Below are positions 1,350 through 58,640 of a DNA stretch of 64,000 nucleotides, piece by piece (the first letter of the stretch is position 1; every line of letters starts with the position of its first letter). The stretch is from assembly GCF_988243305.1 (NCBI RefSeq), contig NZ_OZ547136.1. One strand, 5' to 3'. The notes beneath the pieces are model-generated. The model did no database searches, was not told where the DNA came from, and saw nothing but the letters and a program-made list of their open reading frames with translations. Both the position numbers and the translations under genes were made by a program.

Positions 1350-3491
1350 ATGAACATCATTGCCATTATGGGACCGCATGGCGTCTTTTATAAAGATGAG
1401 CCCATCAAAGAACTGGAGTCGGCGCTGGTGGCGCAAGGCTTTCAGATTATCTGGCCACAAAACAGCGTTGATTTGCTGAAATTTATCGAACATAACCCTC
1501 GAATTTGCGGCGTGATTTTTGACTGGGATGAGTACAGTCTCGATTTATGTAGCGATATCAATCAGCTTAATGAATATCTCCCGCTTTATGCCTTCATCAA
1601 CACCCACTCGACGATGGATGTCAGCGTGCAGGATATGCGGATGGCGCTCTGGTTTTTTGAATATGCGCTGGGGCAGGCGGAAGATATCGCCATTCGTATG
1701 CGTCAGTACACCAACGAATATCTTGATAACATTACACCGCCGTTCACGAAAGCCTTGTTTACCTACGTCAAAGAGCGGAAGTACACCTTTTGTACGCCGG
1801 GTCATATGGGCGGCACCGCATATCAAAAAAGCCCGGTTGGCTGTCTGTTTTATGATTTTTTCGGCGGGAATACTCTTAAGGCTGATGTCTCTATTTCGGT
1901 TACCGAGCTTGGTTCGTTGCTCGACCACACCGGGCCACACCTGGAAGCAGAAGAGTACATCGCGCGGACTTTTGACGCGGAACAGAGTTATATCGTTACC
2001 AACGGAACATCGACGTCGAACAAAATTGTGGGTATGTACGCCGCGCCATCCGGCAGTACGCTGTTGATCGACCGCAATTGTCATAAATCGCTGGCGCATC
2101 TGTTGATGATGAACGATGTAGTGCCAGTCTGGCTGAAACCGACGCGTAATGCGTTAGGGATTCTGGGTGGGATCCCGCGCCGTGAATTTACTCGCGACAG
2201 CATCGAAGAGAAAGTCGCTGCCACCACGCAGGCACAATGGCCGGTTCATGCGGTGATCACCAACTCAACCTATGATGGCTTGCTCTACAACACCGACTGG
2301 ATCAAACAGACGCTGGATGTCCCCTCGATCCACTTCGATTCCGCCTGGGTGCCGTACACCCATTTTCATCCGATCTACCAGGGTAAAAGTGGTATGAGCG
2401 GCGAGCGTGTTGCGGGAAAAGTGATCTTCGAAACGCAATCGACCCACAAAATGCTGGCGGCGTTATCGCAGGCTTCGCTGATCCACATTAAAGGTGAGTA
2501 TGACGAAGAGGCGTTTAACGAAGCCTTTATGATGCATACCACCACCTCGCCCAGTTATCCCATTGTTGCTTCGGTTGAGACGGCGGCGGCGATGCTGCGT
2601 GGTAATCCAGGCAAACGGCTGATTAACCGTTCAGTAGAACGAGCTCTGCATTTTCGCAAAGAGGTCCAGCGGCTGCGGGAAGAGTCTGACGGCTGGTTTT
2701 TTGATATCTGGCAACCGCCGCAGGTGGATGAAGCCGAATGCTGGCCCGTTGCGCCAGGCGAACGGTGGCACGGCTTTAACGATGCGGATGCCGATCATAT
2801 GTTTCTCGATCCGGTTAAAGTCACTATTTTGACACCGGGGATGGACGAGCAGGGCAATATGAGCGAGGAGGGGATCCCGGCGGCGCTGGTGGCAAAATTC
2901 CTCGACGAACGTGGGATCGTAGTAGAGAAAACCGGCCCGTATAACCTGCTGTTTCTCTTTAGTATTGGAATCGATAAAACCAAAGCAATGGGATTATTGC
3001 GTGGGTTGACGGAATTTAAGCGCTCTTACGATCTCAACCTGCGGATCAAAAATATGCTACCCGATCTCTATGCTGAAGATCCCGATTTCTACCGCAATAT
3101 GCGTATTCAGGATCTGGCGCAAGGGATCCATAAGCTGATTCGTAAACACGATCTTCCCGGTTTGATGTTGCGGGCATTTGATACCTTGCCGGAGATGATC
3201 ATGACGCCACATCAGGCATGGCAGAGACAGATTAAAGGCGAAGTGGAAACCATTGCGCTGGAACAACTGGTCGGTAGAGTATCGGCAAATATGATCCTGC
3301 CTTATCCACCTGGCGTACCGCTGCTGATGCCAGGAGAAATGCTGACCAAAGAGAGCCGCACGGTACTCGATTTTCTACTGATGCTTTGTTCCGTAGGGCA
3401 ACATTACCCCGGTTTTGAAACGGATATTCACGGCGCGAAACAGGACGAAGACGGCGTTTACCGTGTACGAGTCCTAAAAATGGCGGGATAA
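1350..3491 (+). CDS. ldcC: Lysine decarboxylase, constitutive
   Basis: 713 aa ORF with good RBS (aggagg); large PLP-dependent decarboxylase in the accA-ldcC-yaeR context. Confidence 0.9.
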   Translation: MNIIAIMGPHGVFYKDEPIKELESALVAQGFQIIWPQNSVDLLKFIEHNPRICGVIFDWDEYSLDLCSDINQLNEYLPLYAFINTHSTMDVSVQDMRMALWFFEYALGQAEDIAIRMRQYTNEYLDNITPPFTKALFTYVKERKYTFCTPGHMGGTAYQKSPVGCLFYDFFGGNTLKADVSISVTELGSLLDHTGPHLEAEEYIARTFDAEQSYIVTNGTSTSNKIVGMYAAPSGSTLLIDRNCHKSLAHLLMMNDVVPVWLKPTRNALGILGGIPRREFTRDSIEEKVAATTQAQWPVHAVITNSTYDGLLYNTDWIKQTLDVPSIHFDSAWVPYTHFHPIYQGKSGMSGERVAGKVIFETQSTHKMLAALSQASLIHIKGEYDEEAFNEAFMMHTTTSPSYPIVASVETAAAMLRGNPGKRLINRSVERALHFRKEVQRLREESDGWFFDIWQPPQVDEAECWPVAPGERWHGFNDADADHMFLDPVKVTILTPGMDEQGNMSEEGIPAALVAKFLDERGIVVEKTGPYNLLFLFSIGIDKTKAMGLLRGLTEFKRSYDLNLRIKNMLPDLYAEDPDFYRNMRIQDLAQGIHKLIRKHDLPGLMLRAFDTLPEMIMTPHQAWQRQIKGEVETIALEQLVGRVSANMILPYPPGVPLLMPGEMLTKESRTVLDFLLMLCSVGQHYPGFETDIHGAKQDEDGVYRVRVLKMAG

Positions 3492-11612: not shown

Positions 11613-12428
11613 TTACCAGCCTTTAACAGCGCCGCCGTTAAACACTTTGTTTGCTGCTTCGTAAACTTCGTCAGACTGATAAGCCTGGACGAATTTCTTC
11701 ACGTTCTCGGCGTCTTTGTTATCTTCACGCGTTACGATCAGGTTTACGTACGGGGACTCTTTATCTTCGACAAAGATACCGTCTTTCGCCGGAGTCAGGC
11801 CAATCTGGCTGGCATAGGTGGTATTGATAACTGCCAGAGCGATTTGCGCGTCGTCCAGAGAACGCGGCAGCTGCGGTGCTTCCAGCTCAACAATTTTCAG
11901 ATTTTTGGGGTTCTCAACAACATCAAGAACGGTCGGCAGCAGGCCAACGCCATCTTTCAGTTTGATCAAGCCCACTTTTTGCAGCAGCAGCAGTGAACGA
12001 CCAAGGTTAGTTGGGTCGTTTGGCACGGCAACCTGCGAACCATCCTGCAGTTCATCCAGTGATTTGATTTTCTTGGAGTAACCTGCAATCGGATAAACAA
12101 AAGTGTTGCCTACTGCGACCAGTTTGTAGCCACGATCTTTCAGTTGCTGATCAAGGTACGGTTTATGCTGGAAGGCGTTGGCGTCGATATCGCCTTTGCT
12201 CAATGCTTCGTTTGGCAGAACATAGTCGTTGAAGGTTACCAGCTCAACGTCCAGGCCATATTTGTCTTTCGCAACTTTCTGCGCGACTTCTGCAACCTGC
12301 TGTTCGGCACCAACAATCACGCCGACTTTAATGTGGTTTGGATCTTTTTCATCCTGACCGCAGCCTACCAGTGCCAGTGATCCAATCAGGGCTCCCACTG
12401 CCGCAAAGGTTTTGAATTTGAACGCCAT
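11613..12428 (-). CDS. metQ: D-methionine ABC transporter substrate-binding lipoprotein
   Basis: 271 aa ORF with lipobox (LALVGC); metNIQ operon order. Confidence 0.9.
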   Translation of the reverse strand: MAFKFKTFAAVGALIGSLALVGCGQDEKDPNHIKVGVIVGAEQQVAEVAQKVAKDKYGLDVELVTFNDYVLPNEALSKGDIDANAFQHKPYLDQQLKDRGYKLVAVGNTFVYPIAGYSKKIKSLDELQDGSQVAVPNDPTNLGRSLLLLQKVGLIKLKDGVGLLPTVLDVVENPKNLKIVELEAPQLPRSLDDAQIALAVINTTYASQIGLTPAKDGIFVEDKESPYVNLIVTREDNKDAENVKKFVQAYQSDEVYEAANKVFNGGAVKGW

Positions 12429-12467
12429 ACCTTATTCCTTCTTCAATTATTTATGTTGTGTTGAACG

Positions 12468-13121
12468 TTACTTGCGAGTGACAGCCCGGACGATGCGGTC
12501 GCCTGCGAACTGAATTAAATAAACCAGAATGACCAGCAATACCAGTACCGTATTCATCACCGTCGCGTTGTAGCCGATGTAGCCATACTGATAGCCAATC
12601 TGACCTAAACCACCGGCACCGACTGCACCACCCATCGCGGAATAACCGACCAGGGTAATCAGGGTGATAGTCGCAGCATTCACCAGACCCGGCAATGCTT
12701 CCGGTAACAGCACTTTACGGACGATCTGCATCGGCGTGGCACCCATTGCGCGGGAAGCTTCAATTAGCCCGGTTGGGATCTCCAGCAGAGCGTTCTCGAC
12801 CATACGGGCAATAAACGGTGCTGCACCAACGGTTAACGGAACAATCGCTGCCTGCAAACCAATCGATGTACCGACAATAACGCGGGTAAACGGAATCATC
12901 CATACCAGCAAGATAATGAACGGGATAGAACGGAAAATGTTCACAATCGCAGAAACGGTACGATACAGCTTCGCGTTAGCAATAATTTGCCCCGGGCGCG
13001 TAACATAAAGCAGGACGCCGACCGGCAGACCAATCACAAACCCAAAAAATCCGGATACGAAGGTCATTGCCAGCGTTTCCCATACGCCACGAACCAGCAG
13101 CCACATCATCGGCTCAGACAT
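12468..13121 (-). CDS. metI: D-methionine ABC transporter permease
   Basis: 217 aa hydrophobic ORF overlapping the metN stop. Confidence 0.9.
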
Positions 13122-14145
13122 AACCCAGTACCTCTACTTTTACATGGTGTTCCTGCAGCCAGGCAATGGCGGCTTGCGTATCTTGTTGTGTGCCGTGCAT
13201 TTCAGTCAGCATGATGCCGAACTTAACGCCACCGGCGTAATCCATCTGCGCGCTAATAATGTTGTTGTTGACGTTGAAACGACGCGCGGTTTCAGAAAGC
13301 AGTGGGGCATCGACCGATTGACCGGTAAACTCCAGACGCAGCATCGGCACGCAGTCAGTGAATGGCTCCGCTTGCAGACGCTCCTGATAATCTTCCGGGA
13401 TATCCAGATGCAGGGTCGACTGAATAAACTTCTGCGCCAGCGGCGTTTTCGGATGCGAGAACACTTCACTTACCGTGTCCTGCTCGATCAGTTCGCCATT
13501 ACTGATGACCGCCACGCAATCACAAATGCGCTTCACAACGTCCATTTCGTGGGTGATCAACAGAATCGTCAAACCCAGACGGCGGTTAATGTCTTTCAAC
13601 AGTTCGAGAATAGAACGTGTCGTTGCCGGGTCCAGCGCGCTGGTGGCTTCATCACACAGCAATACTTTGGGATTGCTGGCTAATGCACGGGCAATCGCCA
13701 CACGTTGTTTCTGCCCACCGGAAAGATTCGACGGGTAGCTATCATGCTTATCGCCAAGACCAACCAATGACAGCAATTCCGTCACGCGACGTTTGATCTC
13801 GTCTTTCGGTGTATTGTCCAGCTCCAGCGGCAGAGCCACGTTGCCAAAAACAGTACGCGAAGAGAGCAGGTTAAAATGCTGGAAAATCATACCAATCTGG
13901 CGGCGAGCTTTGGTCAACTCGGATTCTGACAGCGTGGTCAGTTCCTGTCCATCGACCAGCACGCTACCCTCGGTTGGGCGCTCCAGCAGGTTTACACAAC
14001 GTATAAGCGTACTCTTACCCGCGCCTGAGGCACCGATAACGCCATAAATTTGTCCAGCTGGCACATGCAGGCTGACGTTGTTCAATGCCTGGATGGTGCG
14101 GGTGCCCTGGTGGAACACTTTGGTGATATTCGAAAGTTTTATCAT
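13114..14145 (-). CDS. metN: D-methionine ABC transporter ATP-binding protein
   Basis: 343 aa ORF with Walker A (GASGAGKST) and ABC signature (LSGGQKQR). Confidence 0.92.
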
Positions 14146-14331
14146 TGATTATTTATTATCGTCATTAAGTTAGTCGTGGCATTTCGAATGCCTGGAACGG
14201 GCAACGCCGTCAATGAAATGGATGTTAAGGCATCCAGACGTCTAAATCAATCAGGTTTATGCGAAGAGCACTTTCTTGCTGGTCGAAACATGCGATACTA
14301 GCGTCACATGCCTTATTAAGGAGCTATAAAG

Positions 14332-14904
14332 GTGGCGAAGAGCGTACCCGCAATTTTTCTTGACCGTGATGGCACCATTAATGTCGATCACGGCTATGTC
14401 CATGAGATCGACAACTTTGAATTTATCGACGGTGTTATTGACGCCATGCGCGAGCTAAAAAAAATGGGCTTTGCGCTGGTGGTAGTAACCAACCAGTCTG
14501 GCATTGCTCGCGGTAAATTTACTGAAGCACAGTTTGAAACGCTGACCGAGTGGATGGACTGGTCGCTGGCGGACCGCGATGTCGATCTGGATGGTATCTA
14601 TTATTGCCCGCATCATCCGCAGGGTAGTGTTGAAGAGTTTCGCCAGGTCTGCGACTGCCGCAAACCACATCCGGGGATGCTTTTATCGGCACGCGATTAT
14701 TTGCATATTGATATGGCCGCTTCTTATATGGTGGGCGATAAATTAGAAGATATGCAGGCAGCGGCTGCGGCGAACGTGGGAACAAAAGTGCTGGTGCGTA
14801 CGGGTAAACCTGTTACGCCTGAAGCAGAAAACGCGGCGGATTGGGTGTTAAATAGCCTGGCAGACCTGCCGCAAGCGATAAAAAAGCAGCAAAAACCGGC
14901 GTAA
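14332..14904 (+). CDS. gmhB: D,D-heptose 1,7-bisphosphate phosphatase
   Basis: 190 aa ORF with HAD motif FLDRDGT near the N-terminus; GTG start. Confidence 0.88.
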
Positions 14905-14946
14905 TGATTAAAAGATGAGCGGTTGAAATAAAAATGCATTTTTCCG

Positions 14947-14974
14947 CTTGTCTTCCTGAGCCGACTCCCTATAA
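14947..14974 (+). promoter_or_regulatory. rRNA operon promoter P1 (-35 TTGTCT, 16 bp spacer, -10 TATAAT, GC-rich discriminator)
   Basis: ttgtcttcctgagccgactccctataatgcgcc closely resembles the canonical E. coli rrn P1 core promoter. Confidence 0.8.
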
Positions 14975-15057
14975 TGCGCCTCCATCGACACGGCGGATGT
15001 GAATCACTTCACACAAACAGCCGGTTCGGTTGAAGAGAAAAATCCTGAAATTCAGGG

Positions 15058-15085
15058 TTGACTCTGAAAGAGGAAAGCGTAATAT
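15058..15085 (+). promoter_or_regulatory. rRNA operon promoter P2 (-35 TTGACT, -10 TAATAT)
   Basis: ttgactctgaaagaggaaagcgtaatatacgcc about 110 bp downstream of P1, the typical rrn P2 arrangement. Confidence 0.75.
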
Positions 15086-15269
15086 ACGCCACCTCGCGAC
15101 AGCAAGCTGAAAGCCGCGTCGCAACTGCTCTTTAACAATTTATCAGACAATCTGTGTGGGCACTCGAAGATACGGATTCTTAACGTCGCAAGACGAAAAA
15201 TGAATACCAAGTCTCAAGAGTGAACACGTAATTCATTACGAAGTTTAATTCTTTGAGCATCAAACTTTT

Positions 15270-16811
<1,542 letters not shown>

Positions 16812-16879
16812 CCTTAAAGAAGCGTACTTTGCAGTGCTCACACAGATTGTCTGATGAAAATGAGCAGTAAAACCTCTAC

Positions 16880-16956
<77 letters not shown>

Positions 16957-16998
16957 AATTTGCACGGCAAATTTGAAGAGGTTTTAACTACATGTTAT

Positions 16999-17074
16999 GG
17001 GGCTATAGCTCAGCTGGGAGAGCGCCTGCTTTGCACGCAGGAGGTCTGCGGTTCGATCCCGCATAGCTCCACCA
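16999..17074 (+). tRNA. alaV: tRNA-Ala (TGC anticodon) in the 16S-23S spacer
   Basis: GGGGCTATAGCTCAGCTGGGAGAGCGCCTGCTTTGCACGCAGGAGGTCTGCGGTTCGATCCCGCATAGCTCCACCA. Confidence 0.95.
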
Positions 17075-17257
17075 TCTCTGTAGTGATTAAATAAAAAATA
17101 CTTCAGAGTGTACCTGCAAAGGTTCACTGCGAAGTTTTGCTCTTTAAAAATCTGGATCAAGCTGAAAATTGAAACACTGAACAACGAAAGTTGTTCGTGA
17201 GTCTCTCAAATTTTCGCAACACGATGATGAGTCGAAAGAAACATCTTCGGGTTGTGA

Positions 17258-20166
<2,909 letters not shown>

Positions 20167-29060: not shown

Positions 29061-29846
29061 ATGAATTTAAGAAGGGTTTGTTGTATATGTGTATTATTCT
29101 CGCTGCTTGCAGGATGTGCCTCTGAATCTCCTATTGATGAAAAAAAGAAAAAAACTCAAACCGCACAAAGTTCTATTAATAAAAACGTTCCCCAGCAACT
29201 AACAGACAAAGATTTATATGGTAATGAAACCACACTGGCTGTATCCGAGGAGGATATTCAAGCTGCGCTTGAAGGAGATGAGTTTCGTGTGCCTCTTAAT
29301 TCTCCCGTTATACTTGTTCAGTCTGGCAGTCGCGCACCGGAAACCATTATGCAGGAGGAGATGAGAAAATATTATACAGTTGCCACATTTTCTGGCATTC
29401 CTGACAGGCAAAAACCTGTAACTTGTAATAAAGACAAAAACAAAGATGAAAGTCTGGATGTTGTAGATGCCGAAAATATGAACTGGATGCAGGCATTACG
29501 TTTTGTTGCGGCAAAAGGCCATCAGAAAGCGATTATTGTTTTCCAGGATACGTTGCAGACAGGAAAATATGACTCTGGATTGAAATCAATAGTTTGGTCA
29601 GATTATAAAAATCAAAAATTGACTGACACGATGTCACTGCGTTATTTGGTTCGATTCACGCTGGTGGATGTGGCTACAGGTGAGTGGGCTACCTGGTCGC
29701 CTGTGAATTATGAATCGAAAGTGATTTTTCCGCAGATAGGGAATAAAAATTCTGACAGCCTTGATGTGGCAGAACAGCAGATTTCACAACTTAAGCAGAA
29801 AACGTACGCAGCAGTGGTTAAAGATCTGGTGAATCGCTATCAGTAG
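29061..29846 (+). CDS. yafT: Lipoprotein YafT
   Basis: 261 aa ORF with lipoprotein signal peptide ([12 protein letters not shown]); AT-rich gene immediately after the tRNA-Asp. Confidence 0.75.
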
Positions 29847-30182: not shown

Positions 30183-30662
30183 TTAGAAAATCCGTTCACT
30201 CCAAAGGCTGTACGCACTGGTTCCGGCGACGCTGTGCTCCCAGTTGATACTCTCATAGGTAAATGACACAGACTCTTCCGGCTGTCCTGGGCTGTCGTTA
30301 ATGGTATGGGGAACGGTAAGGCCGATGTTTGAGATCCGGGCGTTAGTCAGTTTCACCTTGTAGTACGGTTCATTAACACCAAAGCGGTTGGTGCGATAGA
30401 ATACAAAATCACAGGTCAGACATTCATTCTCCGAAATTGCCTTGCCCAGCAGGGGGGAAGATTTGTCCACCGGTTTCGTGATGGTCAGCTCCTGGTGGTT
30501 GACATTCTGCGCCCGGCTCAGACCATGGGACAGTGACGTCACCATGATCTGATCCTGATGTGCAATCTGGGCTTTGTTACCGATGGACGGCATTGACGAG
30601 CATCCGGATGAAATCAGCCCCTGAAGTTCTCCGTTCAGTGTCAGATAGACGGGATTTGCCAT
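30183..30662 (-). CDS. hcp: T6SS tube protein Hcp (TssD), distal divergent copy
   Basis: 159 aa from MANPVYLTLNGELQG with RBS AAGGAGAATAACA upstream; Hcp-like sequence. The upstream 129 codons of tracked ORF 30183..31049 overlap vasL out of frame and are not part of the gene. Confidence 0.8.
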   Translation of the reverse strand: MANPVYLTLNGELQGLISSGCSSMPSIGNKAQIAHQDQIMVTSLSHGLSRAQNVNHQELTITKPVDKSSPLLGKAISENECLTCDFVFYRTNRFGVNEPYYKVKLTNARISNIGLTVPHTINDSPGQPEESVSFTYESINWEHSVAGTSAYSLWSERIF

Positions 30663-30679: not shown

Positions 30680-32041
30680 TCAATGGGTCGGAGGGACTGG
30701 CACGGTGCTGTTGTCCGTTGCCATATCCTGTCCGGTATTTTTCAGCAACAGCCAGCGGCTTAACAGCCCATCCAGCCGTTGGTTGATCTCTTTTGCTAGC
30801 GCTTGTGTGTCCTGATTCTGCGTGCGGGTCTCCTGGTACTGCGTCAGCATGTACTCCAGTGGAGTTTCCTGATTCAGTAACCGTTCGGCCTGCCAGGTCA
30901 CCGTTTTGATATACGAGAGGGTGAAACCCTGTTTCTCCGTCTCCTTTTTCATCATCAGATCCGCAAAATCCCGCAAATTCTGCCGCGCCTGTTGCCAGCC
31001 CTTCATCTGCGGACTGGCTTGCGCCCGGTTTCTCAGCGTGGTGCTCCACATCCGGCTGGCTTCCTGCTGTTGCAGGCTTTCCGGCCAGAGGGTGTCTGCG
31101 GTGCGCATCATCTGCATTCCGGTTTCCAGCGGCTGTAGCGGTGGGGTATTCAGAAGCTGTTGCAGGTTCTGTTCATATTCTTTCAGTACCGGTGATGCCA
31201 GCCAGACGGTGGCTGCTCCCTGTGTGGTATCCCTGACCTTTGTAAGCTGCCGCTGCATCGGGTACGTCTGCCACCACCAGAGTGCAGCAGCGATAACGGC
31301 AGTACAGGCGGCACCGGCAACAAAACCTTTTACCGTGTCGCCCTGTTTTGCTTTGTCGGCGTTATCTGCCACTCCGCGCACCTCCACCCGCATTTCCGGC
31401 AGGTCGGGTAGGGGGGGCATGGTTTCCGCTGTGGCGGAAGCCGTGCCTTTAGGCGCATAGACCAGCGTTCTGACCATGGTCTGTACCGCCGTAGCAGTAC
31501 GGTTTCTGGGCTGCGGCTCAAACCGCTTGCGTGTGTTCTGCACAAAATAAAGCAGATTTTCCACGCGCGGTTGGCGCTTCAGTTCCACCTGCTGGAGTTT
31601 GTCGCAGATAAGCTGCAAAGCCCGTTCCGTGCGGTAGAGCAACGAAAGATCATTTTCGGAAAAGGAAACCTGCTGGCGCAGGATATTCCCGGTGCGGGTG
31701 TTGAACCAGTCCAGCATCTCAGTCCTCGCCGGGCCACTTTGCGGCCAGAATTTATCCCATTCGTGGGTGATCATCGCAGCTAGCAGTTCCGCGCCTTCAC
31801 AGAACCCTGCCAGTCCCTGATTACGTGTACGTGCCAGCGTATAGTAGGTGGCGGTATGCAAATCCACCCCGTTGGCCTTAAAAATTGACAGCGCCAGCGA
31901 TTCCACTAGTTTCCAGTTCAGCTCCGGCTGTGACGGGTGGTTAGCTTTGTTAATTTCTTCGCGGATGGCGCTGAACTCCGGCAGGGTACGCGGATCGCTG
32001 CCGGTAACGATAGTTTGTGTCAGTACATTGTTGCTCATCAC
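30680..32041 (-). CDS. vasL: T6SS accessory membrane protein with ImpA-N-like domain (VasL/TagA-like)
   Basis: 453 aa; N-terminal region resembles the ImpA_N domain; single predicted TM helix (GFVAGAACTAVIAAALWWW); sits directly after tssM as vasL does in the V. cholerae cluster. Confidence 0.6.
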   Translation of the reverse strand: MMSNNVLTQTIVTGSDPRTLPEFSAIREEINKANHPSQPELNWKLVESLALSIFKANGVDLHTATYYTLARTRNQGLAGFCEGAELLAAMITHEWDKFWPQSGPARTEMLDWFNTRTGNILRQQVSFSENDLSLLYRTERALQLICDKLQQVELKRQPRVENLLYFVQNTRKRFEPQPRNRTATAVQTMVRTLVYAPKGTASATAETMPPLPDLPEMRVEVRGVADNADKAKQGDTVKGFVAGAACTAVIAAALWWWQTYPMQRQLTKVRDTTQGAATVWLASPVLKEYEQNLQQLLNTPPLQPLETGMQMMRTADTLWPESLQQQEASRMWSTTLRNRAQASPQMKGWQQARQNLRDFADLMMKKETEKQGFTLSYIKTVTWQAERLLNQETPLEYMLTQYQETRTQNQDTQALAKEINQRLDGLLSRWLLLKNTGQDMATDNSTVPVPPTH

Positions 32042-50474: not shown

Positions 50475-50993
50475 ATGCCAACCCCATGTTACATTTCTAT
50501 TACGGGCCAGACCCAGGGGAACATCACTGCCGGTGCTTTCACCGCGGATTCTGTCGGCAATATCTACGTGCAGGGGCACGAAGATGAAATGCTGGTGCAG
50601 GAGTTTTTGCACAACGTTACTGTTCCAACCGATCCGCAGTCTGGCCAGCCTTCCGGCCAGCGCGCGCACAAACCGTTCATTTTCACCGTGGCGCTGAACA
50701 AAGCCGTTCCGCTGCTGTACAACGCGCTGGCCTCCGGTGAAATGCTGCCGAAAGTGGAGCTGCACTGGTGGCGTACTTCAGTTGAAGGCAAGCAGGAGCA
50801 CTACTTCACCACACGTCTTACTGACGCGACGATTGTGGACATGAACCTGCACATGCCGCACTGCCAGGACCCTGCACAGCGTGAGTTTACGCAATTGCTC
50901 GCAGTATCACTGGCATACCGTAAGGTTGAGTGGGAGCACATCAAATCCGGTACTTCTGGTGCCGATGACTGGCGTGCACCGCTGGAAGCATAA
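50475..50993 (+). CDS. hcp: T6SS tube protein Hcp (TssD), canonical copy
   Basis: 172 aa from MPTPCYISITGQTQGNITAGAF with RBS AAGGAG; strong resemblance to the canonical Hcp as remembered from V. cholerae. Confidence 0.92.
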   Translation: MPTPCYISITGQTQGNITAGAFTADSVGNIYVQGHEDEMLVQEFLHNVTVPTDPQSGQPSGQRAHKPFIFTVALNKAVPLLYNALASGEMLPKVELHWWRTSVEGKQEHYFTTRLTDATIVDMNLHMPHCQDPAQREFTQLLAVSLAYRKVEWEHIKSGTSGADDWRAPLEA

Positions 50994-51213: not shown

Positions 51214-53196
51214 ATGTCCTTAAAAGGTCTGCGCTTTACGCTGGAGGTTGACGGCCAGGAGCCGGACACCTTTGCAGTGGTGAATTTCAGGTTAATCCAG
51301 AACCAGTCATATCCGTTTGTGATGAGTGTGGATGTTGCCAGCGACTCTTTTATGCAGACGGCGGAGATGCTGCTGGAGAAGAAGGCGACACTGACCATCT
51401 GGCAGGGCGCAGTGGCGCAGCGTTATGTCACCGGCGTGGTGGCGGGTTTTGGCATGCAGGAGAATAACGGCTGGCAGATGCGTTATCACCTGCGTATTGA
51501 GCCGCCGTTATGGCGGTGCGGGCTGCGGCAGAACTTCCGTATCTTCCAGCAGCAGGATATCCGGACGATATCGGCCACGTTACTGAACGAGAACGGCGTC
51601 ACGGAGTGGACGCCGCTGTTTTATGAGGACCATCCGGCGCGGGAGTTCTGTGTCCAGTACGGGGAGTCGGACCTGGCGTTTCTGTCCCGGCTGTGGGCGG
51701 AGGAGGGAATTTTCTTCTTTGAGCGGTTTGCGGCGGACAGTCCGGAGCAGAAGCTGACGCTGTGCGACGATGTGGCGGGGCTGTCACAGGCGGGAGAGCT
51801 TCCGTTTAACCCGGACACATCGACAGGAGCGGAGACGGAGTGTGTCAGTATGTTCCGTTATGAGGCGCATGTCCGCCCGTCGTCGGTGCAGAGCCAGGAT
51901 TACACGTTTAAGGTGCCGGACTGGCCGGGGATGTATGAGCAGCAGGGTGAGAACCTGAACGGACAGCTGGCGCAGTATGAGATATTTGATTATCCGGGAA
52001 GGTTCAAGGACGAGCAGCACGGCAAGGATTTCACGCTGTACCAGATGGGCAGCCTGCGCAGTGATGCGGAAAAGGCCACAGGGCAGAGTAATTCACCGAA
52101 GCTGTGGCCGGGAACGCAGTTTACGCTGACGGGGCATCCGCAGAAGATGCTGAACCGTGAATGGCAGGTGGTACAGAGCATACTGTCAGGAAGCCAGCCG
52201 CAGGCGCTGCACGGCAGCCAGGGGAGAGGAACCACGCTGGGAAATCAGTTAGAGGTGATACCGGCAGACCGGACGTGGCGTCCACGGCTGCAAAGCAAAC
52301 CGAAGGTGGACGGGCCACAGAGCGCCATTGTCACCGGGCCTGCGGGAGAGGAAATCTTCTGCGACGAACATGGCCGGGTACGGGTGAAGTTCCACTGGGA
52401 CCGTTATCACGGGATGACGGAGGCGAGTTCATGCTGGGTGCGGGTATCGCAGGCGTGGGCGGGGCCGGGTTTCGGCAATCTGGCGATACCGCGGGTGGGT
52501 CAGGAGGTGATTGTTGATTTCCTGAACGGCGACCCGGACCAGCCGATAATCATGGGACGGACATACCATGAGGACAACCGTTCGCCGGGGAGTCTGCCGG
52601 GGACGAAGACGCAGATGACGATACGGTCGAAGACCTATAAAGGAAGCGGATTTAACGAACTGCGCTTTGAGGACGCCACAGATAAGGAACAGGTCTATAT
52701 TCACGCGCAGAAGAACATGGATACGGAAGTGCTGAATGACCGGACGACGGACGTGAAGCATGACCACACGGAAACCATTGGTAACGACCAGAAGATAACG
52801 GTGGGGTTGGGCCAGACGGTGAATGTGGGGAGCAAAAAGGAAGGTGGTCATGACCAGAAAGTGACGGTAGCGAACGATCAGCATCTCACGATAAAAAATG
52901 ACCGGCACAAGGTTGTAAATAACAACCAGACAAGCAAGGTGACGGGAACTGATACCGAAGAAGTCGTCAAAAAACAGAGTATTAAAATAGGTGATAATTA
53001 CGAACTGAAAGTTGAGCATGGTACAAAAATCATATCTGGGGACAGTATTGAGCTAATTTGTGGGCAGGGAGAGAGCGGGACTTGTTCCATAAAACTGGAG
53101 AAAACAGGAAAGATAATAATACGGGGGACGGAGTTTCTATTTGAGGCTACCGGTCCTGTAGATATTAAAGGAAAAGATATTCATCTGAACGGATAG
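51214..53196 (+). CDS. vgrG: T6SS spike protein VgrG (TssI), no C-terminal toxin extension
   Basis: 660 aa; gp27/gp5-like VgrG; C-terminal repeats (HDQKVTVANDQHLTIKNDRHKV); the 3' about 350 nt are visibly AT-richer than the rest. Confidence 0.92.
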   Translation: MSLKGLRFTLEVDGQEPDTFAVVNFRLIQNQSYPFVMSVDVASDSFMQTAEMLLEKKATLTIWQGAVAQRYVTGVVAGFGMQENNGWQMRYHLRIEPPLWRCGLRQNFRIFQQQDIRTISATLLNENGVTEWTPLFYEDHPAREFCVQYGESDLAFLSRLWAEEGIFFFERFAADSPEQKLTLCDDVAGLSQAGELPFNPDTSTGAETECVSMFRYEAHVRPSSVQSQDYTFKVPDWPGMYEQQGENLNGQLAQYEIFDYPGRFKDEQHGKDFTLYQMGSLRSDAEKATGQSNSPKLWPGTQFTLTGHPQKMLNREWQVVQSILSGSQPQALHGSQGRGTTLGNQLEVIPADRTWRPRLQSKPKVDGPQSAIVTGPAGEEIFCDEHGRVRVKFHWDRYHGMTEASSCWVRVSQAWAGPGFGNLAIPRVGQEVIVDFLNGDPDQPIIMGRTYHEDNRSPGSLPGTKTQMTIRSKTYKGSGFNELRFEDATDKEQVYIHAQKNMDTEVLNDRTTDVKHDHTETIGNDQKITVGLGQTVNVGSKKEGGHDQKVTVANDQHLTIKNDRHKVVNNNQTSKVTGTDTEEVVKKQSIKIGDNYELKVEHGTKIISGDSIELICGQGESGTCSIKLEKTGKIIIRGTEFLFEATGPVDIKGKDIHLNG

Positions 53197-53302
53197 TGCA
53201 GGATATAAAACATGGTGATTGTATTTGCTTTATACGCCTGTGAATCACCATTTGTGATTGTTTAAATTAATCATAGCATGACTTATTCAGGAATCAATAA
53301 GC

Positions 53303-54349
53303 ATGATAGAAATGAAAAATAACACACCATTTCCTTTGTTGTCATTTGAAAAATATGGTCGTTATGGTCTTTTGTTTGATGTTATTGCTATTAAAATGTC
53401 ATTGCGAATTAAAAATGGATTTTATGCTGATCTTGCTGAGTTTCAAAAAGAATTGTCCATGTCTGATGAATACTATGGGGAGTCTGAAACAAGTAGTCTA
53501 AAATCTGAAACAGACTTAGTTCTTTGTAAAAGAAATACAGATATTCACGTGACAGGTAGTGCTCATGCCCCTCCAGGGGATAAGTCTAAGTGGAAGGCTT
53601 GTGTGAGGGTTAATAGTTTTTCTAAAGAACTGAGTTTATCTGGTGTCCGCTACTTACAATATGAGCGAAATCGTTGGCAGATGAGCTTACCAGATAAAAT
53701 TATTAATGTTCCTCTACGCTATGAGCTTGCTTACGGTGGTATTTGGCAACCAGATGGTATGGAGAAATTGGTTTTTTCAGCAAACCCTGTAGGTTGTGGA
53801 TATTATCCTGATATTTCTCAACTTAATACAAGTTGTCAATATAAACTCCCACAAATAACCAGCTCTGCTTTGTCAGAAAACGCTACCATTTTTAATGGGG
53901 AATCTGACTTTTTTCAAGGTGTTGGCCCTGTATCTCGATGGTGGAAAAGTCGCCTCCAGTATGCAGGAACCTACAATGAAGTATGGCGTGAAAAGCGCTA
54001 TCCCTATTTGCCGGATGATTTTGATGAGCGGTTCTACAATAGTGCTCATCCGGATATGATATACACGGGGTTTCTCTCTGGCGATGAAAACATCTCTCTT
54101 GAAGGTTTTTTTAAATTTGAACAGGTTGTTAAGACAAAATTGCCAGGTATACGACCTGTACTTATATTAAAAACCAAGCATAATACATCACATATGTTCT
54201 TACCTGTTGCGGATACAATGGTTATCGATTTAAGTCGACAGGAAATATACCTTACCTGGAGATTAACAATACCTGATTTTTTTGGAATGAAAGAAGGAGT
54301 GCTGAGTTGTATTATTCCTGAATGTATAGGGAAAAAATATTATGGGTAA
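53303..54349 (+). CDS. Putative T6SS adaptor protein (DUF2169-like)
   Basis: 348 aa AT-rich gene immediately downstream of vgrG and translationally coupled (8 nt overlap) to a PAAR-like effector gene, the canonical DUF2169 context; assignment is by context and size, not verified by search. Confidence 0.5.
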   Translation: MIEMKNNTPFPLLSFEKYGRYGLLFDVIAIKMSLRIKNGFYADLAEFQKELSMSDEYYGESETSSLKSETDLVLCKRNTDIHVTGSAHAPPGDKSKWKACVRVNSFSKELSLSGVRYLQYERNRWQMSLPDKIINVPLRYELAYGGIWQPDGMEKLVFSANPVGCGYYPDISQLNTSCQYKLPQITSSALSENATIFNGESDFFQGVGPVSRWWKSRLQYAGTYNEVWREKRYPYLPDDFDERFYNSAHPDMIYTGFLSGDENISLEGFFKFEQVVKTKLPGIRPVLILKTKHNTSHMFLPVADTMVIDLSRQEIYLTWRLTIPDFFGMKEGVLSCIIPECIGKKYYG

Positions 54350-55382
54350 CTATCATATCGGGGATGGTGAATGTAGATTTAGAGTCGTGTGTTCTTCACC
54401 AGATGTATGTGAAGTAGGAGGTTACAAGGTTCCTTTTGACAGTTACCAGACTTTAGATAGTGAAAGACAGTACAGTTCAACGGTATGGGCGCGTGGATGC
54501 AGAGCTTTAAATGTTGGTTCAGTGATTGCTGGAACTCAAAGTAATGCCGGTAAAGGTGTCATATCCGGTACATCTCAAGGAACGGGTGACTGTGTTATTT
54601 TAACGGGAAGTCCGACTGTAACAATAGAAGGGAAACCTGTTGCTTATCATGGTTCAGTTGTTGGGATTAATAACCATAACTGCCTTGGTAAATTGTATAC
54701 CAAAATAAAATCACCAATGATTTCTGTCATTGATAAAACTTTTAGTTATGAAAGGACTGCTGAAGTAATACACGATTTACTGCTTCTGAAGGATCTCCTT
54801 TCTGTTGGGAATATTTTGGGCGGAGATATTTCACCTGAGGTTAAAAATGATTTATTTCAAATAAAAGATCCTGACCAATCATGGGGGGAGTTTTTTTCAA
54901 TAAAGAATATCAGAGAATCTCTCAGGAATGGTATTGAAGGAGATAAATCTCAGATCAGAGAATGGTTTGGAGAGAACACACTTACTCAAATGGGCAATGG
55001 AGCAATCACCACTTTACATGGTGTGGCGGATTTAGCCTTAGTTACATTCGATGCTCTGTTAGATACGGCAACGGCAACGGTTGCTTGCCCGATAGGCGAA
55101 GATGGGTTATGTGAACAGGCAAATATAAATTTAAATGAAAAAGAACAGGCTTTATTTAATATTAGTAATTCATTGATAAATGGGCAAGCATGGGATGCAC
55201 TTAAAAAAATGATAATGGATACAAATAATGGTGATCAGATTGCTCTGGAGCATTTTGCCAGCTTTTTATGGGGCTTTATGATACCCGCAAAAATACCAGA
55301 AGAAAATATCTCTGGGAAAGTATTTGTAGAGCCAGTAGTTTTAGAAGGTGGTGCTGGTGGCAATTGGACAGTATTTGATTAG
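54342..55382 (+). CDS. PAAR-like (DUF4150-type) T6SS effector, N-terminal and linker portion; ends at an in-frame TAG
   Basis: 346 aa; N-terminal about 125 aa with the DUF4150-like pattern (GTGDCVILTGSPTVTIEGKPVAYHGSVVGINNHNCLG); helical central region; the stop TAG at 55380..55382 is in frame with the following toxin-like ORF. Confidence 0.6.
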   Translation: MGNYHIGDGECRFRVVCSSPDVCEVGGYKVPFDSYQTLDSERQYSSTVWARGCRALNVGSVIAGTQSNAGKGVISGTSQGTGDCVILTGSPTVTIEGKPVAYHGSVVGINNHNCLGKLYTKIKSPMISVIDKTFSYERTAEVIHDLLLLKDLLSVGNILGGDISPEVKNDLFQIKDPDQSWGEFFSIKNIRESLRNGIEGDKSQIREWFGENTLTQMGNGAITTLHGVADLALVTFDALLDTATATVACPIGEDGLCEQANINLNEKEQALFNISNSLINGQAWDALKKMIMDTNNGDQIALEHFASFLWGFMIPAKIPEENISGKVFVEPVVLEGGAGGNWTVFD

Positions 55383-55409
55383 GTTTTAGATTCAAATGTA
55401 ATAAAGCAA

Positions 55410-55781
55410 TTGACTTTAACAGGCTGTGGAGCGGCCTGTGGGGAAATGTTGCTTAGGGATAGGTATATTTTTGTCACGCAAAATGTAATTGGAACAGAAT
55501 TAACATCTATGACGTCGCTGGCAAACAAGCTTAATAAATTTGATGTCGGCTGGGAAGGGAATGAAGTGAGCGAATCTAGTTTATATGCCCTCAGTAATAC
55601 TGGTTCATGGGGAGCAATGATGTGGGATTCTGGAAGTAAAGTAGGGCATTGGGTACTTGTTAAGGGTGTTGATGATGCTGGGAATGTGATAATATATGAT
55701 CCATATCAAGGGAGTCGATATCTGATGACTGAACAGGAATTTAAGGAGGTATGGAATGGGCATAGTGTTTACAAACCATAA
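55410..55781 (+). pseudogene. Papain/C39-like cysteine-peptidase toxin domain, in frame with the upstream PAAR ORF (split by one TAG codon)
   Basis: 123 codons with no ATG or RBS before the putative catalytic Cys (GCGAACGEMLL); His (GHWVLVKG) and Asp (DDAGNVIIYDP) complete a papain-like Cys-His-Asp order reminiscent of peptidase C39; continuous with ORF 54342..55382 except for one TAG. Confidence 0.45.
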
Positions 55782-56046
55782 TATTGATTTGTTATCGGTT
55801 GAATTTGATGAGATTACAAAAAATTGTAATTACACTTTTAGTGTAGATGGAGAGACGGCTATCTTTACTGCTAGAATATCAATAATAAGAAATATAAAGG
55901 GAATTAAATATAGCGAAGAACTTGATAAATTTATAATGTCAATAATGCCATTGCAGCCTAAAGTATCAAAAATTTTGGGAGGTGTTACTTGGGATTGTAT
56001 TTGTGGTAAGGAAGTTGGATTTCCTGTGAGATTAATTGGTAAGTGA
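55756..56046 (+). CDS. Candidate cognate immunity protein (cytoplasmic)
   Basis: 96 aa; strong RBS AAGGAGG 7 nt before the ATG; overlaps the last 26 nt of the toxin-domain ORF; no signal peptide. Confidence 0.5.
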   Translation: MGIVFTNHNIDLLSVEFDEITKNCNYTFSVDGETAIFTARISIIRNIKGIKYSEELDKFIMSIMPLQPKVSKILGGVTWDCICGKEVGFPVRLIGK

Positions 56047-56284
56047 AGGGTGGTGAGGTATTTCTATATTTTTTTTCGTGAAAGTCTTTAAAACTAAAAT
56101 TATCTTGTTGGGAGCCCAAGGTGAGATCATAAAACGTATTATTTTATAAATATTGTTATGCAGGGAAAGGTCAAGTAATGCTGCTTTTTTGTACTAAATA
56201 ATTCGCATTTTATGTTCAATAATTGAGGTGTTCCTTATTACCTAAAGCTGTTTTTCATTGCTTATACATGATCAAATACTCATT

Positions 56285-57130
56285 GCATAATTAAGGGGGC
56301 AAAATGGAACTTAAAAAATTGATGGAACATATTTCTGTTATCCCCGATTACAGGCAAGCCTGGAAAGTGGAACATAAATTGCCAGATATTCTATCTGTTA
56401 ACTATTTGCGCCGTTATTTCTGGTGCATAAGGCTGGGAAGATATAGAGGATTTGGGGAAACACATCTCGATTTTTTGAAGTGATATGGTGATTTTGAAAA
56501 TGGTATTCCTGTTCACGATATCATTGCCAGAGTTGTATCCTGTATCAGTCCTGCAAAATTTTACGAGTGCTTTATTAACTGGATGCGTGACTGTCATTCT
56601 TCAGATGATAAAGACATCATCGCAATTGATGGAAAAACGCTCCGGCACTCTTATGATAAAAGTCGTCAAAAGGGAGCAATTTATGTCATTAAAATCCGTC
56701 TTCATATTGTTTGCATGTCTCTGATGAATTTATTGATTTTACGTTTGAATGGAAAGGGCTGAAGAAATTATGCATGGCAGTCTCATTTCGCTCAATAATA
56801 GCAGAACAAAAGAAAAATCCCGAAATGACGGTCAGATATTATAGCATTTCTGCTGATTTAACCGCAGAGAAGTTCGCCACAGCGAACCGAAATCACTGGC
56901 AAGTGGAGAATAAATTGCACTGGCATCTGGACGTGGTAATGAATAAAGACGACTTCAAAATAAGAAGAGGAAATGCAGCAGAATTATTTTCAGGGATACG
57001 GAAGATCGCTATTAATATTTTAACGAAAGATAAGATAATCAAGGCAGGGGCAAGATGTAAGATGTGAAAAGCAGCTGCGGACAGAGACTACCTCGCGTCA
57101 GTCCTTGCGGGGGCGGGCTTTCGTAATCTT
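56285..57130 (+). pseudogene. ISAs1-family (H-repeat-associated) transposase, degenerate: frameshifts plus internal deletion
   Basis: Segments matching the N-terminus ([26 protein letters not shown]...GETHLDFLK), middle ([10 protein letters not shown]...[19 protein letters not shown]) and C-terminus ([12 protein letters not shown]...[18 protein letters not shown]...[20 protein letters not shown]) of H-repeat transposases in different frames, with about 120 codons missing from the middle. Confidence 0.75.
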
Positions 57131-57295
57131 GTTCTGCAAGGGATGATAAAAAGTGCAACTTTATTCCACGCAGCTATTTAGACAGCGTACAGTAAACAAA
57201 CGAAAGTTGTTATTTCAATGGTCAGGGCAAGAGCATGAAGTGTTTACTACACACTATGCTCTTGTCCTGGAGTCAGGTCTTGTCTGGAGGGATAA

Positions 57296-57799
57296 ATGGT
57301 AGATATTGTCGAGGCCGATAAAACGGATATTTATTTCATTCAGGAGAGTGTTTATGGCAAAATCGGGTTGCCAGCTTTGGGTAATACAATAGGACCATCC
57401 GCACAGCAAGTTGTTAAAAAGGTATTCGCTGTCGTTAAAGAACGAGATAAGACACATGCAAAACAGAGATTATTGTTGGAATATAATGGTAACAAACTCT
57501 GGATGAATGCTATTGATGGCAGTGAAGCTATCCTACCAACAGAATTTTCTAAGCGGTACGAACTTTCATTATTCAATACTACTAATTTTGGAGAAGATCC
57601 TTTTCCTGATGTTAATTTATATAATAATATGAAATCAAGTTTTTTTGTAAGGTTTGGTGGAACATCCCATCCCGAGGCTTGGGCTATTTATAATGCAAGT
57701 ACGAAAGAGGTTAAATATATAGAAACTGCAAGAGAAATTGATAAAATATTCAGTGATTTTAACTTGAGTGGTACATTGCCAATTCACATTGGTCAATGA
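57296..57799 (+). CDS. Hypothetical protein (cysteine-free, no signal peptide)
   Basis: 167 aa ORF with strong RBS (GGAGGG) 6 nt upstream; AT-rich; between the two ISAs1 fragments; no recognisable family. Confidence 0.45.
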   Translation: MVDIVEADKTDIYFIQESVYGKIGLPALGNTIGPSAQQVVKKVFAVVKERDKTHAKQRLLLEYNGNKLWMNAIDGSEAILPTEFSKRYELSLFNTTNFGEDPFPDVNLYNNMKSSFFVRFGGTSHPEAWAIYNASTKEVKYIETAREIDKIFSDFNLSGTLPIHIGQ

Positions 57800-57864
57800 T
57801 TTTTAAATTGTGTGATTAAATAATTGAACATTAATGATGATTTATAGCATCATTATTCTATAAC

Positions 57865-58377
57865 ATGAATAAACGGATTGAATGTGTTATGTTAAAAATG
57901 AGTTTATACGTAATAATATTGTTATTTTCCTTTCAGATTAGTGCAGCCATTACTAGCAAGGAAAGTGAGGTTGTTTCACCATTATTAATGGATGTTAATT
58001 CTTCACTAACAATGGAAAATATATCTGAATTATCCACATCATCGGAACCATCGCAACAGGGGGTATTTCCTGTAATATGTACTCGACTTCATCCTGGCTC
58101 CGTAATGAAACGCCAGTTATTAACCGGCTGGGGGCCTGTTTTTATAATTGGTGATGATCCTTTTTCTCTGCGCTGGATGAGTGAACATCTGGAGATCCTT
58201 AAATCGCTAAATGCCCTTGGTTTGGTTGTTAATGTTGAATCAGTAGAACGAATGGAGGTATTACAGCAGCGGGCTGATGGGTTATTGTTATTGCCAGTTA
58301 TCTGCGATAATTTCGTGCAAACTCTGCAATTAAATGCTTATCCGGTATTAATCACAGAGATGGAAATATCACAATGA
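57865..58377 (+). CDS. Hypothetical exported protein (signal peptide)
   Basis: 170 aa ORF with N-terminal signal-like segment (MLKMSLYVIILLFSFQISAAITS); AT-rich; no recognisable family. Confidence 0.45.
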   Translation: MNKRIECVMLKMSLYVIILLFSFQISAAITSKESEVVSPLLMDVNSSLTMENISELSTSSEPSQQGVFPVICTRLHPGSVMKRQLLTGWGPVFIIGDDPFSLRWMSEHLEILKSLNALGLVVNVESVERMEVLQQRADGLLLLPVICDNFVQTLQLNAYPVLITEMEISQ

Positions 58378-58394
58378 TTAATAACATAATTACT

Positions 58395-58640
58395 GCAAAT
58401 AATATCGTAATTTTGAAAATGGTAATCCTGTTCACGACACCATAATTAGAGTTATGTCTTGTATCCGTTCAGTATAATTTCACGAATGCTTTATTAACTG
58501 GATGCGAGATTGCCATTCATCAAATGATAAAGACGTCATCGCAATTGATGGAAAAGCGCTTCCACACTCCTATGATAAAAGTGGTCGCAGGAGAGCGGGC
58601 TTTCGTAGTCATACCCCGACTCTCCCCAGCCCTAAACACA
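58395..58640 (+). pseudogene. yafF: ISAs1-family (H-repeat) transposase fragment, second copy (yafF-like remnant)
   Basis: About 220 bp direct repeat of 56490..56700 encoding FENGNPVHDTI...[35 protein letters not shown], adjacent to yafV. Confidence 0.7.

Follow-up and report, generated by a model that had tools for sequence, protein, structure and literature searches.

The window, i.e. the whole stretch of 64,000 nucleotides that we analysed, contains an effector cassette of the E. coli T6SS-1, formed by hcp, vgrG, a DUF2169 gene, cpe1 and cpi1. The module is already characterised and consists of VgrG, a DUF2169 chaperone, the protease toxin Cpe1 and the immunity protein Cpi1. It lies between the aspV-side T6SS-1 cluster and yafV-ivy-fadE, which is the chromosomal locus of Cpe1-Cpi1, and RefSeq labels cpe1 and cpi1 at this same locus in S88 and in other strains. 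Over DUF2169-cpe1-cpi1 the DNA is 99.5% identical to Cpe1-Cpi1 of E. coli ATCC 11775—the same as Tsap of ExPEC RS218 and cpe1/cpi1 of S88 (PMC12136450; PDB 9L5U). The run begins with the tube protein gene hcp (tssD, 50475..50993, + strand; TIGR03344, E=4.6e-62), whose product is identical to Hcp of S88. The 13 T6SS core genes are all intact in the window; tssA-M, hcp and vgrG are each an open frame, so that VgrG is encoded with a complete T6SS core. PADLOC gave no match for any protein of the module and a reading of it as a defence system was dropped; nor did Pfam match the 167-aa ORF found at 57296-57799.

The three ORFs delimited in a preliminary description of this DNA, 51214-53196 (+, 660 aa), 53303-54349 (+, 348 aa) and 54342-55382 (+, 346 aa), are real: they have profile matches and are not chance ORFs. 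The first is vgrG (tssI), which matches TIGR03361 with E=5.7e-182 and 605.8 bits (cut-off 186). Pfam detects in this spike protein Phage_GPD, Phage_base_V and Gp5_trimer_C (the Gp5 beta-helix) only, all ending by residue 603, and no toxin domain, in agreement with the early statement that this VgrG has none at its C-terminus. The 3' end of the gene, about its last 105 codons (52878..53196, +), is specific to the module by comparison with other vgrGs: those of E. coli match the query 52700-53300 only as far as about 52877, GC drops at this end from about 0.60 to about 0.36, and the paralogue carried by a sister genome, Z1323HEC0462, has the identical protein sequence as far as about residue 492, with divergence from near residue 493. 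We counted 300 genomes with the full vgrG 3' end and 299 with the downstream module.

The second gene (53303..54349, +) encodes a DUF2169 accessory protein of 348 aa, a chaperone of the TvpA/Tap2 type. Its match to PF09937 (E=2.7e-71) is full-length (model positions 7-294 of 294) and is the sole domain of the protein, which also matches PDB 8VTH, a DUF2169 protein, at E=2.3e-14 and is named in RefSeq 'DUF2169 family type VI secretion system accessory protein'. NCBIfam returned no family at E<=0.01 for this protein or for the PAAR-like protein encoded next, which is a limit of that library: Pfam did find both, the latter as DUF4150/Tox-PAAR-like (PF13665, E=8e-12), and assigned neither to an unrelated family. 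Read directly from the sequence, the DUF2169 stop overlaps the ATG of the next gene by 8 nt (ATGGGTAA at 54342..54349, +, within the string TATTATGGGTAA at 54338-54349), and Cpe1-Cpi1 of ATCC 11775 has the same DUF2169 gene and the same overlap. This overlap, reported from the start, fits the translational coupling that had been deduced from it; on the fixed stoichiometry that had been deduced as well, it shows nothing. As the corresponding junctions in distant relatives are -11, +1 and +3 nt, the close juxtaposition of the two genes is conserved, not the particular 8-nt overlap. A promoter and terminator scan detected nothing resembling a terminator between the genes; its promoter-like matches are inflated by AT-rich sequence, and the scan says little on operon structure.

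The DUF2169 gene lies directly between vgrG and the DUF4150 gene, an arrangement published as DUF2169 synteny type B (PMC11883445) and as Tvp Class I (PMC13373197). The system belongs to this class, and module and mechanism are otherwise published. Pentapeptide-repeat, thiolase-like and DUF6484 partner genes are absent from the vgrG-DUF2169-DUF4150 set, and the order vgrG, single-domain DUF2169, DUF4150 is also found in three distant relatives. The likeness to the Tde2 system of Agrobacterium, proposed at the outset, is correct for the domain matches and the gene order, which is that of VgrG2-Atu3641/Tap2 (DUF2169)-Tde2 (a DNase fused to DUF4150)-Tdi2 of A. tumefaciens. Both systems combine a single-domain DUF2169 protein with a PAAR-like domain fused to a toxin (Tvp Class I, type B), and in both the VgrG C-terminus is module-specific. 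However, the toxin of Agrobacterium is a DNase, whereas that of the window is a C39 peptidase—cut off by a stop codon—and the window adds a CDI-type cytoplasm-entry domain between tip and toxin. Another relative is the set VP1398 (DUF2169), VP1415 (a PIPY effector) and VgrG1 of Vibrio parahaemolyticus, with the same DUF2169 fold family (crystal structure 8VTH) and a DUF4150 partner (PMC11883445); for VP1398 and for the DUF2169 protein of the window the proposed chaperone role is to shield the hydrophobic PIPY surface. The Vibrio system is nevertheless of synteny type A and comes with further accessory genes, whereas that of the window is limited to the minimal set of type B; the motif of the window reads KVPF, not P(I/V)P(Y/F).

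The third gene (54342..55382, +) is, from PF13665 and the alignment to the intact cpe1 of S88, a 5' fragment of cpe1 made of 346 codons and a premature TAG. Its PAAR-like/PIPY domain covers residues 15-115 (54384-54686, +; PF13665 model positions 2-107 of 108). At the position of the PIPY motif we read K29-V30-P31-F32, of which the last three positions fit P(I/V)P(Y/F), unlike the first. The motif columns of 145 family representatives are mostly V/I, V/I, P/A/G and F, with P at the first position in only 16; this analysis rests on an exhaustive HMMER search, a word-indexed homologue search having given only 10 matches. The AlphaFold2 model of residues 1-126 is all-beta and of low confidence (pLDDT 60, pTM 0.53), and the top three PDB matches of Foldseek are the PAAR proteins 4JIV, 4JIW and 6P1Z, all weak (best E-value 0.025). 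The model and the matches are consistent with a PAAR-like fold and are not a proof of it. The missing first proline (KVPF) and the low-confidence tip model are also points that we counted against the explanation favored below.

Residues 189-346 (54906-55379, +) are homologous to the cytoplasm-entry domain of StbD-CT (PDB 8SSK, E=2.4e-32), one of the StbD-CT/CdiA-CT C39 toxins of Citrobacter rodentium (PDB 8SSK, 8SSM; bioRxiv 10.64898/2026.05.07.723447). The likeness extends to the C39 peptidase (E=3e-44) and to a GG|A auto-processing site, predicted in the window at codons G336-G337-A338 (55347..55355, +), which align with G157-G158|A159 of StbD-CT. StbD-CT differs in its route of delivery, which is the CDI pathway in place of a T6SS spike tip, and it lacks both a PAAR-like domain and a DUF2169 partner. 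Cpe1 is stated to share the GG auto-processing site with StbD-CT (preprint 10.64898/2026.05.07.723447), and cleavage at GG|A would accordingly be expected in Cpe1 itself. The stop falls 9 residues past this predicted site.

The stop itself is an amber codon, TAG for GAG (Glu347), created by a G to T change at 55380 with respect to S88 (55380..55382, +). E. coli S88 carries an intact cpe1 of 479 aa, with GAG at codon 347; the frame of the window is otherwise open for 479 codons and runs after the TAG without stop to 55781. Position 55382, first given as the end of a gene, is thus a premature TAG inside a longer one, and E347* leaves carrier and toxin outside a single uninterrupted polypeptide. 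The allele is rare: with the exact 73-nt context of the stop, it occurs in 2 of the 332 complete E. coli genomes that have the locus. It is nevertheless a real lineage allele, since the exact 346-aa protein is present on 185 public contigs, versus at least 1000 for intact Cpe1. RefSeq calls two separate CDS in both sister genomes, one of which, NY1601, has ISEc31 inside this vgrG, and the other, Z1323HEC0462, an extra vgrG-DUF4123-PAAR module. Compared with S88 the window has four further substitutions in residues 132-160. E347*, A408E (see below) and the cluster of variants in residues 153-160 occur in the same two of the complete genomes and in no other, so that the allele distribution gives no order of these changes.

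Downstream, in the same frame, comes the 3' fragment of cpe1 (55383..55781, +), the C39/papain-like peptidase toxin domain (Peptidase_C39, PF03412, E=2.7e-07), identical at 131 of 132 positions to Cpe1tox of PDB 9L5U. It retains the catalytic Cys362 (55425-55427, +), has no further stop and only one amino-acid change; relative to S88, A408E (55563-55565, +) changes one of the residues that make up the published hydrophobic exosite and, with the TAG that splits carrier from toxin, distinguishes the window from Cpe1-Cpi1. Cpe1 is a T6SS toxin which cleaves GyrB and ParE, C362 being catalytic, and ATCC 11775 kills in a T6SS-dependent manner (PMC12136450). For the same gene in RS218 (Tsap), toxicity comes only from the C-terminal part, bp 1041-1437 (PMC10434152); the stop of the window is at bp 1039-1041. 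The immunity gene cpi1 (55756..56046, +; 96 aa; PDB 9L5U chain C, E=3.6e-62) overlaps the 3' end of cpe1 by 26 nt; it is intact and its protein is identical to Cpi1 of S88. The limits first given to the module were too narrow, as the toxin fragment and cpi1 both fall outside them.

For the biochemistry of DUF2169, PIPY and Cpe1/Cpi1 we rely on the literature: the DUF2169/PIPY mechanism is described in PMC11883445, PMC6945064 and PMC13373197, and for DUF2169 homologues the chaperone binding and the role in secretion were shown by assay (PMC11883445, PMC6945064). An intact Cpe1 would cap the VgrG trimer with its PAAR-like (DUF4150/PIPY) N-terminus. DUF2169 would act as a non-secreted chaperone shielding the hydrophobic face of this domain, and would be needed for a secretion-competent VgrG tip. 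Upon firing, entry domain and C39 peptidase would travel with the tip into the neighbouring cell, where the peptidase would cut GyrB and ParE at a Gly-Gly motif, the producer being protected by Cpi1.

In the window the G-to-T change puts the amber stop at Glu347, precisely where the carrier half gives way to the peptidase. The gene is then likely to yield a toxin-less tip of 346 aa, which may still pair with DUF2169 and VgrG, and the peptidase fragment is probably untranslated or undeliverable. We infer a stable 346-aa protein that remains able to load on VgrG, and no delivery of the toxin. With the immunity retained, the module would be disarmed and the strain still protected. Because E347* cuts the carrier from the C39 peptidase, the chain of spike, adaptor and cargo would be without covalent cargo in this genome. 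We thus consider it very probable that this is the known cassette, disarmed by a stop at codon 347 between its carrier half and its peptidase while keeping its immunity. Against this reading, the peptidase frame is barely changed; as it has a single change and no further stop, either its decay began only recently or some constraint still acts on it. A further point against is that the allele, present on 185 contigs, is not strongly counter-selected.

The truncation might even be more than simple decay, and E347* a maintained state of blunt tip plus shield, although we hold this to be unlikely. The lineage would keep DUF2169 and the toxin-less tip/entry protein because the only VgrG of the cluster needs both for a T6SS that assembles and fires on behalf of other effectors. 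Cpi1 would be kept against Cpe1-armed relatives, and the toxin dropped. With its end 9 residues past the auto-processing site, the truncated product would closely resemble the carrier fragment left by wild-type Cpe1.

Quite improbable is a functional split effector, in which re-initiation downstream of the amber—TTG 55410 (Leu357) being one candidate start—yields a free C39 peptidase with Cys362, carried non-covalently on the truncated carrier or on the spike, and delivered. This TTG is in frame, 27 nt past the stop, the peptidase frame is otherwise intact and cpi1 is kept. But no Shine-Dalgarno-like sequence lies upstream of TTG 55410, and the sole in-frame ATG past the stop (55446), where PGAP starts the fragment, comes after Cys362 and so omits the catalytic residue. 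Moreover, a free C39 domain would be without the entry domain proposed to be needed for reaching the target cytoplasm, and A408E alters the exosite.

Among its stop codons, E. coli terminates least efficiently at UAG. A low level of read-through, giving little full-length Cpe1 and an attenuated rather than dead effector, would agree with a frame whose only lesion is one UAG. This is very unlikely in our view, as basal read-through would make the full-length tip protein much scarcer than the truncated form, with which it would compete for the same VgrG. It is still harder to maintain that the 346-aa ORF is by itself a complete PAAR-type effector cargo, as the preliminary description had it. The ORF does contain a PAAR-like domain followed by an extension of 230 residues; this extension, however, matches the cytoplasm-entry domain, not a toxin, and in RS218 the PAAR and middle parts are non-toxic, only the C39 part being toxic (PMC10434152), which also led us to reject a toxic role for the middle region. 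Besides, 330 of the 332 genomes differ from the window inside the 73-nt context of the stop, and those inspected have the 479-aa form. The ORF is the carrier half of cpe1, from which E347* cuts off the C39 peptidase. Finally, a sequencing or assembly error, conceivable for a difference of one base only, is rejected as effectively refuted by the identical allele in two independent complete genomes (one from chicken, China; one from human, South Korea) and the exact 346-aa protein on 185 contigs.

Returning to the disarmed cassette, the main value of these data is a corrected annotation: the "PAAR effector" as first delimited is half a gene. The locus also offers a natural example of how one base change uncouples a T6SS toxin from its tip, the chaperone, tip and immunity genes being left intact. 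Provided that its T6SS still fires, the lineage would offer a ready-made genetic test of the structural need for a DUF2169/PIPY tip, independently of the toxin.

The 346-aa ORF at 54342-55382 (+), taken in the preliminary description for a PAAR effector, is not a whole gene. It is closed by the TAG at 55380-55382, after which the frame stays free of stops up to 55781, and the 132 codons past the TAG form a Peptidase_C39 domain (PF03412, E=2.7e-07), identical at 131 of 132 residues to the crystallised toxin domain of Cpe1 (PDB 9L5U). In E. coli strain S88, cpe1 is a single gene of 479 codons; compared with it base by base, the window shows ten differences, among them the change of codon 347 from GAG (Glu) to TAG. 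As the S88 gene is intact and the window carries this change, the 346-aa product is, judged from the sequence, only the carrier half of a cpe1 gene broken by a nonsense codon, with the C39 toxin past the premature stop. One defining feature of the Cpe1 family, the uninterrupted carrier-toxin polypeptide, is therefore missing from the window.

Cpe1 is known from strain ATCC 11775, whose DNA is 99.5% identical to the window over the 53200-56100 query: this papain-like cysteine protease (catalytic Cys362) is delivered by the T6SS, has GyrB and ParE as substrates, each cut at a Gly-Gly motif, and is neutralised by Cpi1 through a hydrophobic exosite including A408 (PMC12136450). Tsap of the ExPEC strain RS218, described earlier, is the same gene; its toxicity resides only in the C-terminal stretch (bp 1041-1437), and neither the PAAR segment (bp 1-324) nor the middle one (bp 324-1041) was toxic (PMC10434152). 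The stop, bp 1039-1041 of cpe1, falls exactly at the boundary between middle and toxic parts (bp 1041). What is left upstream includes residues 189-346, matching the YajC-dependent cytoplasm-entry domain of StbD-CT, a CDI toxin of Citrobacter rodentium (PDB 8SSK, E=2.4e-32). A 2026 preprint reports that Cpe1 shares with StbD-CT this entry domain and a Gly-Gly auto-processing site (10.64898/2026.05.07.723447). In the window, G336-G337|A338 aligns with G157-G158|A159 of StbD-CT, so that the truncated product ends nine residues past the predicted self-cleavage point of the wild-type protein.

As for the orphaned toxin fragment, the sole in-frame ATG after the TAG stands at 55446, downstream of Cys362, and is the start used by PGAP in two complete E. 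coli genomes sharing the allele, NY1601 and Z1323HEC0462. A TTG at 55410 would keep Cys362; no Shine-Dalgarno-like sequence was found upstream of it. The fragment also differs from S88 by A408E (55563-55565), which puts a charge into the published exosite: A408 belongs to a set of six hydrophobic residues there that are reported to bind Cpi1 and contribute to toxicity (PMC12136450).

By megablast (query 53200-56100), 335 out of the 5426 complete E. coli genomes contain the locus, chromosomal in every match and nearly always at ≥99% identity. Newer RefSeq annotation names intact copies "cpe1: cysteine protease effector protein Cpe1", with "cpi1" as the next gene. When the 332 complete genomes with the locus were searched for exact matches to a 73-nt query that has the TAG at its centre, only two carried it: NY1601, from chicken faeces in China, and Z1323HEC0462, from a human in South Korea. 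Each of the remaining 330 differed by at least one base; the exact 346-aa protein occurs on 185 public contigs, versus at least 1000 for intact Cpe1. A sequencing error as the origin of the TAG is ruled out by these two complete genomes and 185 contigs: E347* is a genuine, though rare, lineage allele. A408E and a cluster of variants at residues 153-160 are restricted to the same two complete genomes, so that the order of the mutations is not recoverable. Further truncated or split products of the same protein cluster (277, 299, 301, 354 and 379 aa, in E. coli), and the separate C39 fragment annotated in O145 strains (e.g. RM9872), suggest that the decay of cpe1 is recurrent, by repeated independent inactivation.

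The genes upstream have the identities first proposed. All three ORFs of 51214-55382 run in the same direction. The first (51214-53196, +, 660 aa) is a canonical VgrG (TIGR03361, 606 bits for a cut-off of 186) with Phage_GPD, Phage_base_V and Gp5 beta-helix repeats reaching residue 603, and the Pfam search found no toxin domain in it, as had been stated for its C-terminus. The second (53303-54349, +, 348 aa) is a single DUF2169 domain over its full length (PF09937, E=2.7e-71), matching the only solved DUF2169 structure, PDB 8VTH, at E=2.3e-14. The cpe1 part starts with Tox-PAAR-like PF13665, the former DUF4150 (residues 15-115, E=8e-12). Pfam searches thus confirm the DUF2169 and DUF4150 assignments and place no ORF in an unrelated family. 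An AlphaFold2 model of cpe1 residues 1-126 is all-beta at low confidence (pLDDT 60); PAAR proteins take the first three places among its PDB matches, with weak E-values.

The analogy drawn with Agrobacterium Tde2 is apt, and now has direct literature on DUF2169 systems behind it. DUF2169 genes strictly co-occur with vgrG and DUF4150 ("PIPY") genes, the minimal vgrG-DUF2169-DUF4150 layout being named "synteny type B"; in V. parahaemolyticus, DUF2169 binds a hydrophobic patch of the PIPY domain and is required for VgrG secretion and sheath assembly (PMC11883445). Secretion of Agrobacterium VgrG2 requires Atu3641 (PMC6945064), and a 2026 study places systems of this kind, with a single DUF2169, in Tvp Class I (PMC13373197). 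The motif P(I/V)P(Y/F) reads KVPF in the window, three of four positions fitting; position 1 is mostly V or I in the family, P occurring in only 16 of 145 representatives. The 8-nt overlap between the DUF2169 stop codon and the ATG of the cpe1 part (54342-54349) is indeed read, within TATTATGGGTAA at 54338-54349. The gene order vgrG, DUF2169, PAAR-like, small downstream gene is retained in three distant relatives—one with an Ntox50 toxin in place of the peptidase—and their DUF2169/PAAR-like junctions measure -11, +1 and +3 nt; by this comparison the close juxtaposition is conserved but the particular overlap is not. Translational coupling, as proposed from the overlap, is compatible with this juxtaposition, whereas the fixed stoichiometry proposed along with it is not demonstrated.

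The cassette seems to begin inside vgrG. A VgrG paralogue of Z1323HEC0462 is identical to that of the window up to about residue 492 and divergent beyond; 22 of the 23 substitutions relative to S88 VgrG lie in residues 1-516, one after; and in other E. coli vgrGs the alignment with the query 52700-53300 breaks off at about 52877. The complete vgrG 3' end is present in 300 genomes, the downstream module in 299. GC drops from ~0.60 to ~0.36 at this 3' end, within a sharp fall to 0.30-0.42 over 52900-58400 that ends at the yafV boundary, as would be expected of a cassette that came in by horizontal transfer and was fused to vgrG inside its coding sequence. Together with the gene order of the relatives, these data support a putative cassette that combines the VgrG C-terminus with chaperone, effector and immunity gene. 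In NY1601, ISEc31 interrupts the vgrG of this module (NY1601 locus 2096-3309), and Z1323HEC0462 has an extra module of vgrG, DUF4123, two hypothetical genes and PAAR inserted between hcp and this vgrG (locus 12352-17996); effector cassettes appear to turn over here through recombination in the conserved vgrG core.

Downstream, two ISAs1 (H-repeat) transposase remnants (56478-56677 and 58397-58596; 200 nt each, 82% identical, direct orientation) bracket two low-GC ORFs at 57296-58377, an arrangement also present in S88. The 170-aa ORF is a PFL_4695-family ICE protein (TIGR03765, E=2e-35); the 167-aa ORF gave no match in Pfam, NCBIfam or PADLOC. A second hcp (159 aa, 30183-30662, -) adjoins a VasL-domain gene (30680-32038, -) at the distal end of the T6SS cluster, and the island boundary is marked by a tRNA-Asp together with a hypothetical gene of 261 aa (29061-29846).

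The immunity gene cpi1 (55756-56046, +) encodes a protein identical to S88 Cpi1 and matching chain C of 9L5U, and all 13 T6SS core genes of the window (29-51 kb) are open frames. The most likely state of the module would be a T6SS that works, or potentially works, with a VgrG tip protein stripped of its peptidase and the immunity retained. The module as such—Cpe1-Cpi1, a DUF2169 chaperone and a dedicated VgrG—is known and published; what is added is that the copy of this lineage is probably disarmed by the E347* nonsense mutation. What interest remains lies in a possible, though unlikely, structural reason for keeping the toxin-less tip.
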